The notes under the pieces were generated by a model, which saw only the letters and a program-made list of their open reading frames with translations, was not told the origin of the DNA and made no database searches. The translations under genes and the position numbers were made by a program. DNA of 64,000 nt, taken from positions 142,228,001-142,292,000 of the forward strand of contig OZ024741.1 of NCBI GenBank assembly GCA_964016885.1, written 5' to 3'. Origin of the DNA: Eledone cirrhosa. Its lineage: Eukaryota. Shown piece by piece: positions 4,786-10,070 of this stretch (within the stretch, counting starts at the first letter, position 1; each line of letters begins with the position of its first letter).

Positions 4786-4850
4786 TATTTTATCTGACGA
4801 AAGCGCACCATAATTTGACTTGGTGTCCTTGAAATATGTATAATGAAATA
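4786..4850 (+). ncRNA. Type I hammerhead ribozyme, canonical core
   Basis: TATTTTAT-CTGACGA-AAGCGCACCA..TGGTGTCCTT-GAAA-TATGTA-TA-ATGAAATA; 8-bp stem I; predicted cleavage after A4842. Confidence 0.85.
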
Positions 4851-6247
4851 AATATGGTTTTATAAATATAGTTTCCATTTGTTAATATATCGTATTTTTA
4901 CTCCAATAATTTGTTGAGTGCTTTATATCAGATATAAAAATATTTGCTTGTTGTATCCCAACAATTTAAATATAACTTCTACATATATATATATATATAT
5001 ATATATATATATATATATATATATATATATATATATATATATATATATATATATATATATATATATATACATATATATATATATGAATATACATACATAT
5101 ATATATATATGAATAACTATGTGTATACTCTGGGAATGTATCTTACATTGCCTATTGAGTACGCTGAGATACAACCGGTCCTGGCATTGATAAATATGCT
5201 GGGTCCGTCAACTCCTTATTATATATATATATATAAGTATGTATACGTACATACATATATGTATACAGACGTACAGTAGTATGTATATATATATACATAC
5301 ATGCACACATATATATATATGTACGTATGGATTCACCGATATACTGTACGTCTGTTTACATATATGTATGTACGTATACATACTTATCTTTAAGTAACAG
5401 CCGTACTAAGAGTGAGAAATGAAATTTCGTTTCATTTTTTCCGTTTATATATATATATATATATATATATATATATATATATATATATATATATATATTG
5501 GTTATGTTTTGGAAGCCGTCATAATGCCCCCAAGAATACCAATTTTCATATTCCACAAAGCATCAAGCAATATTATCAACCAGTCACGATTCCAATGACG
5601 GAAACCATGTATATTCACGTTTTCAGGAAGGGATCTGACGCGACTGCATCGCGGTTGAGTTCATCTCATGAATGATAGAACGTGTAACAAAACTAACGGA
5701 TTTTCCCGTTGAGTAGGAGTTGTTTGAGGGAATCAATCTGATAGCGACGAATAATTTCATAGTTTGGCACAAAATCCATTTATAGTTGTCTCCCACTTAA
5801 ATAGTATTTTACTATGATAACCAACAGAAAGACTATGTTAACTAGGAATATAACATGGGATATTTTTGCAATAACATCACTGCTTGACGTGATGTTGCTC
5901 CATATTTGACATTGAGAGTAATATAGAAATTGCATAATGTGACAACTGCAGCCTGTTGGCATCCATCACCCCACACTAGTAAATCGAGCAGGTTGGTTTT
6001 TGATTTACTAAGAGGGCGTGTTTGAATTTCCTATAGGGCTGGTCCGAGGTATATATGGTAGATAGGGTTGGTTTGAAGATTATTTTTTGCGTTTGCTTGA
6101 TATCCAGAATTCCGTTTAGATTTGTTTATGTTTCAGTTAAGGAACATGTCGGTCGTAGTCGTATATAGGGGGCGAATTAGCTGAGTTGTTAGAACGTAGA
6201 AAAAGACACAAGAACAAGGTATATGAAGAGAATATCAATGGTTAGAT

Positions 6248-6400
6248 GGCGGCGAATTGGCAGAATCGCTAGAACGTCGGATAGAATGTTTTATGGTATT
6301 CGTTCCAGCTCTCTTTTCTTGGAGTTCAAATCCCGCCGATGTCAACTTTGCCTTTCATCCTTTCGAGGTCGATAAAAAAGTACCAGTATAATACTGAGTT
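6248..6400 (+). mobile_element. tRNA-derived octopus SINE (OK-like family)
   Basis: GGCGGCGAATTGGCAGAATCG..GAGTTCAAATCCCGCCG..CTTTGCCTTTCATCC; related copies at about 16197, 17325 (-), 28934, 29722 (-), 39333, 39527, 42569 (-), 52880, 56378 (-). Confidence 0.75.
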
Positions 6401-6610
6401 CGATTCTTCCTCTATATCTCTTTCTCACTTTCTATTTTTTTCTGGAAGAAGTCTGCTGTACTCAGGCCTGGAGAGGGATAGGCTCCGCCAGGCTTAAAAT
6501 GCCCAAGAAAAGCCGTATGTCAGTACGATGCCCCTACGACTTTATCAGGAGTTACGGGGCCATACATACGTCAATGGTTAGACGGATCTCACTATTCATA
6601 AACTTGTGAA

Positions 6611-6892
6611 GGTACGTGACTTAGTGGTTAAGATGTTCGACTCACAATCGTAATATCGTGAGTGTGATTCTCGGTGTCGCGCTGTGGTTTTGAGCAAAAC
6701 ACATTATTACACGTTGCTAGAAAAAATGAATTGTGCCTGTAATTTATAGGCCCAACCTTGTTACACACTGTGAAACGCTGACTCTCCATAAGGACCACGT
6801 TATTCTCAGCCACTTGCACGTTAATTTTACGAGCAGGCTGTCCCATTGTTCGAATAACTGGAACACTCGTTGTCGGAATTGACGAAGGTCTA
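6611..6892 (+). mobile_element. tRNA-headed SINE with CORE-like domain
   Basis: A-box-like TGACTTAGTGGTTA, TTGAGCAAAACAC, CTCAGCCACTTGCACGTTAATTT; homologous to 14576-14895. Confidence 0.7.
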
Positions 6893-7577
6893 ACACACAC
6901 ACACATATACACACACATACATACATACACACACACAGACACACACATATACGCAGACAGACATACACGGAGACAGACATACAAACAGGCAGACATTCAC
7001 ACAGGCAGCTATACGCACGCAGACAGACACACAAACAAACATACATACAGACACACATATACATATGCACACATAGATAGATAGACAGAGACAGACACAC
7101 AGAGACAGACACACAGGCAGACAGACACGTATTAACCAGTTTTGACATTAATGTAATGATTAACACATTGATGGTTTTATAACTTTTATTAGTGAAAACG
7201 TCAAAGCTGAAAAATTTTTCTACTATTAATTGCCACCCCCTCCACCACGTCACTCATTTGGCTTTCAGCAAGTTGGAAAAGTTTAAAACAATGAAATTGT
7301 AAACTTAGTCACAAAGATAATGTTTAAAATTCTCCACTTAAGTTAGTTATGTGACAGAAGATAAGAGGTGTGAAGATTTTAATTTGAATGCAAGAAATAT
7401 AATTCCGAAAAGTTGTTAACAGCACGATTCACTAATGTCTGATTTAATAAATGTTAGTCATTCAGCGGGAATGGAAACCGCAGGACGGTAGAACGGCTGG
7501 ATGAAAGTAAAGACTAACTAACGCAGAGGACGGTAACAGGTACCGTAGAGTAAAATTAAGGATCATGGAAGCAAAAA

Positions 7578-7860
7578 GGAAAGGGACATCAGATCGGACC
7601 AAGGAAGAAATATTCCCATTGGTCTTTTCATTGCTGATACTATCTGCTGGTATACCGTGAATATATATATATCTTTAAAGGAAAGGGACCAATAATCATA
7701 TTAGATCAAGGAAAGAATGTTTCTATTGGTCTTTCCATAGCTGATACTATCTGTCGTCTAAAATGCTTTGAATAAATATATATCTTTAAAGGAAAGGAGT
7801 TGATAGTTATATCGGATCAAGGAAATAATGTTTCCACTGGTCTTTCTTTTGCTGACGCAA
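7578..7860 (+). repeat. Three diverged tandem units of about 105 bp
   Basis: GATCAAGGAAA..TGTTTC..TTGGTCTTT..GCTGA repeated near 7580, 7681 and 7791. Confidence 0.65.
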
Positions 7861-8632
7861 CTCATAGCAGAATAAAATGTTATATTTAATTTAATTATAC
7901 AAATTTGTATAAAATTCCGATTCGTTATGGTTCAGTAATACGCTTCTGTGAGGTTTGCGCCTTAGGCGGTTGCCCAGTTGTCTTTAATGGTAGCACCGAC
8001 CCAGTCCTCTCGACAAACGAACATATCGACATTCTATTATCACATAGGATTTAAATATATTCTCAACCACATTTCAAGTGGCTACTAAGTTGACTTTTGA
8101 AATAGTTTTCAGTGGTTTCAGAAATAACCTCACTGTTGGTTTCTAAACAGCGTCCTTAATAGATTCTCAATATACAGCACTTCACTCCTATTGACTTGTT
8201 ATCACCAACACAGAATATATATCTTCGATCAATGGACGTTTGCAGTGAACAAACTAAACAGACAGTGATTATGCGACTGAAGTGCCGTGATTTCAAAGAT
8301 TCATTTCAACTTTGAGAGAAATACAAAACATTTACTAAATTGAAATATCTAGAAACGTACCTCGTTAATACAGAAGGCCATTGTTGCTATTGTGTTAAAT
8401 ATTTAGCTCATAACCTATACTTAATTCACAGAATTACAGACATATACAGACCACACTGACACATGTACAGGGCATATATATATATATATATATATATGTA
8501 TGCAAAAGTTTTATTTAAAATTGTTGGGTTACAACAAGTAAATATTTTATAACCGATATAAAGCACTCGACAAGTTTTTGGAGTAGATATACGATATTAA
8601 ACAAATGGAAACTATATTTATAAAACCATATT

Positions 8633-8698
8633 TATTTCATTATACATATTTCAGGGATACCATATTAAAAATATGGCATGCCTTCGTCAGATAAAATA
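8633..8698 (-). ncRNA. Type I hammerhead ribozyme
   Basis: Reverse complement of 8812-8877. Confidence 0.85.
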
Positions 8699-8811
8699 CA
8701 ATATATAAACAGTTTTATAAATAATTTTGACGTACCAAGCCAGCTTCCTACCTTAATGGTCGCTTATATTTATGGTACGTCAAAATTATTTATAAAACTG
8801 TTTATATATTG

Positions 8812-8877
8812 TATTTTATCTGACGAAGGCATGCCATATTTTTAATATGGTATCCCTGAAATATGTATAATGAAATA
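8812..8877 (+). ncRNA. Type I hammerhead ribozyme
   Basis: TATTTTAT-CTGACGA-AGGCATGCCATATT..AATATGGTATCCCT-GAAA-TATGTA-TA-ATGAAATA; stem II covaries relative to the 4786 copy. Confidence 0.85.
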
Positions 8878-9167
8878 AATATGGTTTTATAAATATAGTT
8901 TCCATTTGTTTAATATCGTATATATATATATATATATATATATATATATATATATATATATATATATATATATATATATATATATATATATATATATATA
9001 TATACACATATGTATATATATATATATATATATATATATATATGTATATATATATATATATATATATATATATATATATATATATATATATATATATATA
9101 TAAATGGAATAGAATGAAACCAAATTTCATTTCTCACTCTTAGTACGGCAGTTACTTAAATGTAAGT

Positions 9168-9556
9168 ATGCATGTATGTATACGTACATACATATATGTA
9201 TACAGACGTACAGTAGTATGTATATATATACACACATGCATACATATATATATATATATATGCACGTATCGGTTTACCGAACATTTATTATAATGCTCGG
9301 TTTGTTTGTAAACAAACAAACAGCCCGAATTACGCCGTACAGTGTTTAGGCAATCACGTCACCTTTTTGTTCAACACTGACACAGGAACGTTCGTGTGTC
9401 ATTCGGGCTGTTTGTTTACAAACAAACAAACCGAGCATTATAATAAATGTTCGGTAAACCGATACGTGCATATATATATATGTGTGCATGTATGTATATA
9501 TATACATACTACTGTACATCTGTATACATATATGTATGTACGTGTACATACATGCA
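9168..9556. repeat. Fold-back palindromic repeat embedded in (TA)n
   Basis: GCACGTATCGGTTTACCGAACATTTATTATAATGCTCGG near 9262 is mirrored near 9430-9470; family also at about 5225-5440 and 26643-26900. Confidence 0.8.
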
Positions 9557-10005
9557 TATATATATACATATATATACATATATATACATATATATACACA
9601 CATATATATATATATATATACATATGAGGATGAGCCCACAGCAAGACACGAGGGAAACCTAAGGGCAGCAGCAACAAACTCCCTCTTACACCAGTGGCCA
9701 ACCTATACAGGCTGGAGATAAAATGTGTAGCAACAAGGGCGGTGCCCCAGCATGGCCTCAGCCGGATGGCTAAAACAGGTAAAAGAGTAAAAGAGTATAC
9801 ACACACACATACATACACACACACACACACACACACACACACACATATATATATATATATATATATATATATATATGCAAAAGTTCTATTTAAATTGTTG
9901 GGATACAACAAGCAAATATTTTATAACTGATATAAAGCACTCAACAAGTATTTGGAGTAAACATACGATATTAACAAATGGAAACTATATTTATAAAACC
10001 ATATT

Positions 10006-10070
10006 TATTTTATTATACATATTTCAAGGACACCAAGTCAAATTATGGTGCGCTTTCATCAGATAAAATA
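10006..10070 (-). ncRNA. Type I hammerhead ribozyme, CUGAUGA core
   Basis: Reverse complement reads TATTTTAT-CTGATGA-AAGCGCACCA..TGGTGTCCTT-GAAA-TATGTA-TA-ATAAAATA; directly downstream of a PLE RT fragment. Confidence 0.87.

Follow-up and report, generated by a model that had tools for sequence, protein, structure and literature searches.

A widespread non-coding repeat of Eledone cirrhosa with a minimal, dimer-type hammerhead motif and a Penelope-like insertion pattern

The minimal hammerheads of Penelope-like elements are reportedly treated by Lunse, Weinberg and Breaker (RNA Biol), and the hammerhead of newt satellite 2 is said to go back to Forster et al. in 1988. Here we describe a repeat with a related motif, found in a stretch of 64,000 nucleotides of Eledone cirrhosa DNA (contig OZ024741.1, positions 142,228,001 to 142,292,000). 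This whole stretch is called the window, and its positions are counted from its first letter. The repeat is non-coding, has more than 46,000 copies and adds a new family to a kind that was known before; the family itself, its size, its dispersed two-ended layout and a mismatch in helix II are the new details. On balance, we think that it is probably a retroelement that inserts into (TA)n and carries a type I hammerhead near its 3' end. It is likely copied in trans by a Penelope-like reverse transcriptase/endonuclease, and the hammerhead is predicted to cleave itself after an AUA triplet only when two copies pair via a palindromic helix III.

The Penelope-type minimal hammerheads (Cervera and de la Pena 2014, PMC4209133) share with the present motif the type I topology, a long helix II and, as an indication of dimers, a tiny helix III with a palindromic sequence. 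They have also spread massively, occurring as single motifs and as opposite-strand pairs 100–700 bp apart, and their consensus families are rich in compensatory changes. The differences lie in helix I (4–5 bp there, 8 bp here), in the base pair 10.1-11.1 (G-C there, mostly A-U here) and in the carrier, which is the pseudo-long terminal repeat of a coding element there and non-coding here. Unlike the published motifs, the present one has no unpaired nucleotide between A9 and 10.1, a conserved pyrimidine.pyrimidine opposition at the fourth position of helix II, and a full 8-nt palindrome as helix III.

Animal non-LTR (long terminal repeat) retrozymes (Cervera and de la Pena 2020, PMC7229834; Li, Clavereau and Pollet 2026, bioRxiv 10.64898/2026.07.22.740005) resemble the repeat in being non-autonomous, AT-rich and non-coding, in carrying a type I hammerhead and in their proposed dependence on Penelope elements, with amphibian examples that cleave in a dimer-dependent manner. 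They are recognized by head-to-tail tandem units of about 150–450 bp, each with a hammerhead (PMC7229834), and their tandem repeats of ~170–400 nt give circular RNAs, whereas the copies described here are dispersed, solo or head-to-head, and up to 1150 nt long. Newt satellite 2 and the SINE-like (short interspersed nuclear element-like) repeats of Schistosoma (PMC7229834, PMC6765202) likewise place a hammerhead in a short interspersed or satellite repeat, with a weak helix III and activity only as a double hammerhead. However, they have a 4-bp helix II and loop-loop contacts instead of a helix II of 10–16 bp with an internal mismatch, and they are tandem units or units with an RNA polymerase III promoter. 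A polymerase III transcript seems unlikely for our unit because of its many T runs. The insertion pattern, finally, is the one seen in Penelope-like elements as described by Craig et al. (2021, PMC8557442), with 5' truncation, an inverted copy at the 5' end that is itself 5'-truncated, a tail that frequently occurs at just one end, and a preference for (TA)n, which these authors tie to a CX2-5CxxC linker. The tail measures 88 nt here compared with 30–40 bp there, and the non-autonomous Chlamys elements of that study share the 3' end of their autonomous partners, a similarity that we did not find among the coding elements compared (see below). Full-text searches of the literature on hammerhead ribozymes in octopus or cephalopods gave no description of such repeats, in agreement with the first-pass annotation of the window, which knew of no description; supplementary files could hold consensus sequences. 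The text of the 2026 Octopus vulgaris repeat annotation (PMC13282606) contains neither ‘hammerhead’ nor ‘ribozyme’, and its supplement could hold a consensus as well.

The pattern CTGANGA-N20-50-GAAATATGTATA matches the window at exactly four places (4794–4842 and 8820–8869 on the plus strand, 8641–8690 and 10014–10062 on the minus strand) and matches none of 100 shuffled versions that preserve the dinucleotides (four matches where none are expected). All four motifs (Table 1), referred to by their lowest position, contain CUGANGA and GAAA boxes and an AUA triplet, with a helix I of 8 bp and a long hairpin as helix II. Their layout is of type I: helix I is open and formed by the 5' and 3' ends, while helix II, of 10–13 bp, is closed by a loop. 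The conserved core (C3 U4 G5 A6 N7 G8 A9 ... G12 A13 A14) is complete in each copy, and N7 is its sole variable position, being C or U in the window and any of the four letters genome-wide. Helix I joins TATTTTAT to ATGAAATA with one U.G, except in the 10006 copy, where the partner is ATAAAATA and the pairing is perfect. Helix II reads AAGCGCACCA/TGGTGTCCTT in the 4786 and 10006 copies (subfamily A) and AGGCATGCCATAT/ATATGGTATCCCT in the 8633 and 8812 copies (subfamily B); between the two versions the second and the sixth pair have changed in a compensated way, and both versions have a C.C at the fourth. Pairing starts with the first nucleotide after A9, and a shift by one nucleotide breaks the helix. 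Both helices I and II are recovered in the minimum-energy fold of the monomer, with pair counts that agree.

The helix III segment, ATATGTAT, is self-complementary along 8 bp, two of them G.U, and precedes the unpaired A17 and the 3' strand of helix I. The motif has A15.1 and U16.1; the 8-nt segment cannot close a hairpin, as a loop of 2 nt would remain. The AUA triplet of all four copies conforms to the NUH rule for cleavable hammerhead triplets. Judged by sequence, the four motifs are real hammerhead-ribozyme sequences, of a minimal, dimer-type kind and not canonical ones. The four sites with their core boxes, 8-bp stem I and AUA triplet, the tiny near-palindromic stem III and the C.C mismatch near the core had all been reported by the first-pass annotation and were confirmed, and so was its proposal of a covarying stem II (next paragraph). 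Its term ‘canonical’ has to be dropped in view of the Rfam results and the A-U pair discussed below. Nor are the four motifs independent, since they belong to three insertions of one repeat family.

Covariation was assessed in an alignment of 28 sequences from five subfamilies, with 500 shuffles as background. Of all cells, 89.1% pair (shuffled mean 82.9%), and nine pairs show two-sided changes (shuffled mean 4.6); not one of the shuffles reaches either value. Next to the core, six out of six helix II pairs are compensated and 97% of the cells are paired, and sliding the partners by 1–3 columns lowers the pairing of the whole structure to 31–49%. The fourth position of helix II (column 10.4/11.4) is unpaired in 28 of 28 sequences. 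The same position was inspected in 40 varied copies, hand-picked among 100 listed matches of the genome pattern given below: 33 of them could be parsed that far, and in none of these 33 does the position pair (32 pyrimidine.pyrimidine and one C.A); in the other seven the parser halted because adjacent positions fail to pair as well. Helix I forms eight out of eight pairs in 38 of these 40 copies. The four inner letters of helix III, which the pattern leaves free, are self-complementary in 37 (ATGT, GCGC, ATAT and others). Among seven subfamily representatives the mean identity is 0.93 in the core (only N7 varies) and 1.00 in GAAA, with 0.53 in helix II, 0.58 in the 50 nt upstream and 0.67 in the 45 nt downstream. 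Subfamily H was picked up by our covariance model and not by the regular expression for the core; it has a distinct helix I, helix II (TATCACCGG/CCGGTCATT) and helix III (ATGATCAT), an intact core and, once more, C.C at position 4.

The size of the family was estimated with the pattern TATCTGANGA-N28-38-GAAATNNNNATAATRAAATA, in which only the core and GAAA, both ends of helix III, a portion of helix I and the 3' strand of the latter are fixed. It has 23,346 + 23,070 = 46,416 matches in the 3.0-Gb genome, and the reversed control has 0 + 0. For the 239-nt unit around the first motif, the first-look candidates of the same genome number at least 1,305, and the 40 full-length matches among those that were scored are 97–100% identical; for the second version (subfamily B) there are at least 361 candidates, 98–100% identical. 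Being 97–100% identical, the copies of A and B are therefore young. Our own covariance model, a check that had been suggested together with the covariation analysis, finds 144 matches in 424 kb of sampled loci. Contigs of three sequencing runs show only that its copies are highly repeated in organism A and also occur under a second label, organism B.

As reference for the complete element we used the 1150-nt copy L087:6996-8145, to which the other loci were related by flank alignments and blastn mapping. The carrier is a non-coding, AT-rich element of up to 1150 nt without a long reading frame. The hammerhead core begins at reference position 961 and the predicted cleavage follows position 1009, so that the distance between the motif and the 3' end is about 50 nt for the short end and about 140 nt for the long one. 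These two alternative 3' ends, 1062 and 1150, are 88 nt apart: six of the 11 long-element loci mapped end at 1060–1062 and two at 1150, the end that is also found in the query locus L011. The 5' part of the element alone has at least 1,214 first-look candidates with 79–90% identity, most of which begin at the same base, and the young copies of A and B show variable 5' truncation (reference 835–930). The 88-nt tail contains two hairpins with stems that differ by subfamily yet pair (for example TTGTTG...CAACAA versus TTATTG...CAATAA), which may represent a second selected RNA structure. An internal (TA)n tract occupies reference positions 296–390 of the L087 copy, and in some copies other elements have inserted in this tract, namely a 3.2-kb antisense retroelement (L101) and a 725-nt insert (L102). 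The 3.2-kb insert, which splits one long copy, was considered as an autonomous partner and rejected as an unrelated antisense retroelement.

Insertions were mapped in 29 loci of family A and 29 of family B. The main copy adjoins (TA)n at its 3' end in 54 of these 58 loci. An inverted arm, joined 5' to 5' with the main copy, is present in 16 of 29 A loci and at least 12 of 29 B loci. Its outer end falls at reference 1055–1065 in 25 of 28 cases, and 25 of 28 outer ends adjoin (TA)n; the inner junction varies by locus (reference 870–930, or 598–693). Among the matches of the genome pattern that were listed, 12 pairs in −/+ orientation lie within 600 nt and there are no +/− pairs. We found no direct tandem copies in the three insertions of the window or in the 58 mapped A and B loci, and no junction of a 3' end with a 5' end in the mapped loci, where the copies follow the linear order 1–1150. 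The window itself contains one solo insertion, one head-to-head pair and one insertion with a 20-nt snap-back. The head-to-head pair forms an inverted repeat with arms of 154 nt (8584–8737 and 8773–8926) that are 99% complementary.

The energies of dimers were obtained by explicit evaluation of a domain-swapped double hammerhead in comparison with two monomers. The double hammerhead has the lower energy in subfamilies A (−24.2 versus −21.6 kcal/mol), B (−32.2 versus −28.6 kcal/mol), C (−33.3 versus −22.6 kcal/mol) and E (−20.8 versus −19.8 kcal/mol). The 8-bp self-pairing of helix III, which includes two G.U in A and B, is perfect in ATGCGCAT, ATATATAT and ATGATCAT. The hammerheads of Penelope-like elements, with their short palindromic helix III, likely act as dimers (PMC4209133, PMC6765202), in line with the first-pass annotation, by which minimal type I hammerheads can cleave as dimers, and the dimers of amphibian retrozyme hammerheads cleave far better (PMC7229834). 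For the present family, the weak helix III would leave single RNAs uncut, and the ribozyme would thus be carried into nearly every new copy. Cleavage would require a high concentration of the RNA or a transcript that carries two sense copies, and a transcript running through a head-to-head pair would form a long duplex that hides the motif. Target-primed reverse transcription would begin at either of the two 3' sites of the linear RNA, and the second arm could stem from priming at the other DNA end or from a snap-back of the cDNA.

The window also contains a copy of a Penelope-like element (Table 1). Its frame at 901–2343 encodes an RVT_1 reverse transcriptase and a GIY-YIG endonuclease preceded by a CX4CXXC linker. 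Its family, very abundant and young, has at least 47,110 first-look candidates, often with an intact frame of 784 aa, and the 89 candidates that were scored are all 96–100% identical in protein. Of 28 copies inspected at the 3' end, 12 run straight into (TA)n and 16 have a tail of about 37 nt in between; one head-to-head pair of the coding element bears the tail on a single arm. Because the hammerhead repeat reproduces this insertion anatomy, we regard it as a passenger of Penelope-type enzymes, and by analogy its mobilization in trans is likely. The Penelope-like element of the window is a candidate source of the enzyme and is unrelated to the repeat in sequence.

The search for a partner covered 56 loci of coding elements (20 + 6 + 30), out of at least 10,597 GIY-YIG and at least 47,110 Penelope-like first-look candidates. 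Within the window, a profile of the 88-nt tail picks out the three tails already known and no others, and it has no match in 29 loci of the abundant family. Six loci with long Penelope-like frames carry other hammerheads, or none. A different hammerhead occurs twice on the plus strand, 459 nt apart (L083:5900-5969 and 6359-6428), in a tandem, retrozyme-like arrangement downstream of a long Penelope-like frame. Minimal hammerheads with a 6-nt palindromic helix III (AGTACT, ACTAGT) were seen at L084:2608-2636 (−), L085:2591-2619 (−) and L037:2718 (+); in L084 and L085, Penelope-like reading frames are found some 400 nt upstream of the motif.

Several results weigh against a ribozyme that is mobilized by Penelope-type enzymes and cleaves as a dimer. 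No hammerhead family of Rfam 15 matches the window at gathering score, and none appears at E ≤ 10 in 4500–10400 (5.9 kb) or in 4770–4870 (101 nt). We ascribe this to the missing helix III hairpin and to the A-U at 10.1-11.1; the Rfam matches that the region does give are microsatellite-driven microRNA look-alikes below threshold. A-U occupies this position in subfamilies A, B, C and E, with G-C or G.U only in D and F, while G-C is highly conserved in the Penelope-type minimal hammerheads, whose activity in vitro is very low, even as dimers (PMC4209133). In subfamily D the double hammerhead is less stable than two monomers (−18.4 versus −21.6 kcal/mol), and the plain minimum-energy fold of a dimer never returns the double hammerhead in any subfamily evaluated. 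Nothing beyond (TA)n links the hammerhead unit to the window or to 20 GIY-YIG loci; the covariance model has one strong match in 30 loci of the abundant Penelope-like family, outside the element, and a relaxed hammerhead scan of that family finds none. Thus, no autonomous element that shares the 3' end or the sequence of the repeat was found among the 56 loci. Most of the sequences were gathered with patterns that require the core, and independent events have to be counted by subfamily lineage, which gives a handful and not thousands. In the family of the long element, the hammerhead is preserved no better (0.955 identity) than its upstream (0.946) and downstream (0.990) flanks, as should be the case for dead copies. 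The proposal of the first-pass annotation that the structure was selected therefore holds as far as the covariation between subfamilies goes, with a case that rests on this handful of lineages; it gains nothing from conservation inside one family.

The junctions with TA runs belong to the same discussion. A run of (TA)6 is joined directly to the post-cleavage sequence in 74 copies, compared with the 46,416 that keep the whole motif, another point on the negative side. At three control positions (+13, +19 and within the helix II loop) the count is 0 each, and 15 copies have the junction just upstream of the G of helix III; 16 of 20 cases that were fetched lack the sense 5' half of the motif. 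The ratio indicates that the RNA that is reverse-transcribed is nearly always uncleaved, and such a template would fit a ribozyme that is inactive as a monomer. We did not count the hotspot at the cleavage site as evidence of cleavage, since microhomology with the (TA)n target explains it equally well, helix III itself being TA-like.

These observations can also be read in a way that does without cleavage in vivo, with the hammerhead fold as a structural handle that would serve, for instance, the reverse transcriptase or the stability of the RNA, a relic or an exapted ribozyme shape. The A-U at 10.1-11.1 in most subfamilies, the helix III that is not stable, the low published activity of the Penelope-type motifs (PMC4209133) and the disproportion between intact and site-starting copies would all suit such a role, as would the fact that conservation is highest in the next 45 nt downstream (0.990 identity). 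It leaves unexplained that the unpaired core letters are fixed, apart from N7, across subfamilies with diverged helices and flanks, and that helix III is self-complementary in nearly all varied copies, which is sensible only for the pairing of two copies. We hold this reading to be rather unlikely. A bolder form of our own interpretation would make the family a natural record of Penelope-type enzymes that work from the two sides of a (TA)n break and copy a linear, ribozyme-bearing RNA via two fixed priming sites 88 nt apart; the hammerhead would be an architectural variant of its own, the pyrimidine.pyrimidine mismatch at position 4 would replace the tertiary contact of loop 2, the 8-nt palindrome would enforce cleavage in dimers only, and the 74 site-starting copies, with none at the three control positions, would be fossils of self-cleavage in vivo. 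Taken as a whole, this extended version appears doubtful.

For a classical animal retrozyme one would expect a tandem transcript with two cuts, a small RNA circle and reverse transcription by rolling circle. Retrozymes with type I hammerheads are known from animals (PMC7229834), and a few same-strand neighbors exist among the matches listed, for example two that are 206 nt apart. The absence of direct tandems from the window insertions and from the mapped loci of both subfamilies, together with the linear order of the copies, their variable 5' truncation and the lack of any 3'-to-5' junction, makes it quite improbable. The first-pass annotation had pointed to both Penelope-like elements and retrozymes as the setting of such motifs; the link with Penelope fits the insertion anatomy, and the idea of a retrozyme with circular RNA has no basis at these loci because there are no direct tandem copies. 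We give about as little credence to a SINE-like element mobilized by a microsatellite-specific non-LTR element (long interspersed nuclear element, LINE). LINE clades that target microsatellites exist, the window holds a LINE frame with RVT_1 and zf-RVT at 24601–26451, and no sequence-matched Penelope partner was found among the loci compared. But the two arms are overlapping duplicates of one RNA region joined 5' to 5', which twin priming on a single RNA does not yield, and the combination of a one-arm tail with two 3' ends recurs in the Penelope-like family itself. The tail profile, moreover, matches no LINE in the window, and Penelope-like elements characteristically carry hammerheads (PMC4209133, PMC8557442). 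Finally, arms of 154 nt that are 99% complementary might suggest a DNA transposon or a miniature inverted-repeat transposable element, with the head-to-head arms as terminal inverted repeats. This is hardly credible given inner junctions that differ by locus, the many solo, 5'-truncated copies and the unequal outer ends of the two arms (1062 versus 1150).

Hammerheads of Penelope-like elements and retrozymes are already known. A very large and diversified family with young A and B copies offers natural mutational data on a hammerhead that is predicted to cleave only as a dimer. The passenger and an abundant, intact Penelope-like element share the target, the optional tail and the head-to-head layout, which makes trans-mobilization testable with defined partners. 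There is also a consequence for annotation, as repeats of this kind number in the tens of thousands and a survey such as that of the octopus repeats (PMC13282606) would class them without reference to a ribozyme.

Table 1. Positions of the hammerhead repeat copies, their parts and the Penelope-like element in the window (cleavage sites are predictions; reference positions refer to the 1150-nt copy).
Feature	Position	Strand	Details
Penelope-like element copy	1..3895	+	3' end ~3848, then ~37-nt tail, then (TA)n
(TA)n runs flanking the solo copy	~4681-4705 and 4983-5080		
Solo 5'-truncated copy, subfamily A	4708..4983	+	reference 875-1150; blastn versus long element
Hammerhead motif 1, subfamily A	4786..4850	+	model R1, 95 bits
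Motif 1, helix I	4786-4793/4843-4850	+	
Motif 1, CUGACGA	4794-4800	+	
Motif 1, helix II	4801-4830	+	
Motif 1, GAAA	4831-4834	+	
Motif 1, helix III segment	4834-4841	+	predicted cleavage after A4842
Optional 88-nt tail	4896-4983		reference 1063-1150
(TA)n at outer end of head-to-head main arm	~8470-8500		
Head-to-head main arm, subfamily B	8506..8736	−	reference 915-1145, including 88-nt tail
Hammerhead motif 2, subfamily B	8633..8698	−	R1, 90.8 bits; predicted cleavage after A at 8641
Head-to-head inverted arm	8742..8921	+	reference 883-1062, without tail
Hammerhead motif 3, subfamily B	8812..8877	+	pattern and covariance model; predicted cleavage after A8869
(TA)n at outer end of inverted arm	8920-9100		
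Subfamily A copy	9881..10115	−	reference 908-1145; (TA)n at 3' end ~9840-9875
Hammerhead motif 4, subfamily A, perfect helix I	10006..10070	−	predicted cleavage after A at 10014
Snap-back palindrome at 5' end of the 9881..10115 copy	~10104-10147		~20 nt per arm

The window as a whole is a patchwork of retroelements and TA/CA microsatellites. Besides the LINE-type frame mentioned above, a second one with a zf-RVT domain lies at 18951–19838, both on the plus strand. Between two microsatellite blocks there is a large palindrome (~9156–9590) whose arms contain GGTTTACCGAACATTTATTATAATGCTCGG... together with the reverse complement; this palindrome has no relation to the hammerhead repeat and is possibly a foldback element. 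Four near-identical tRNA matches of 44–46 bits were found at 35845–35956 (+), 28735–28846 (−), 39137–39248 (−) and 52681–52792 (−). Each has a 39-nt insert after the anticodon loop, and they represent either multi-copy, intron-bearing tRNA genes or a tRNA-derived repeat.

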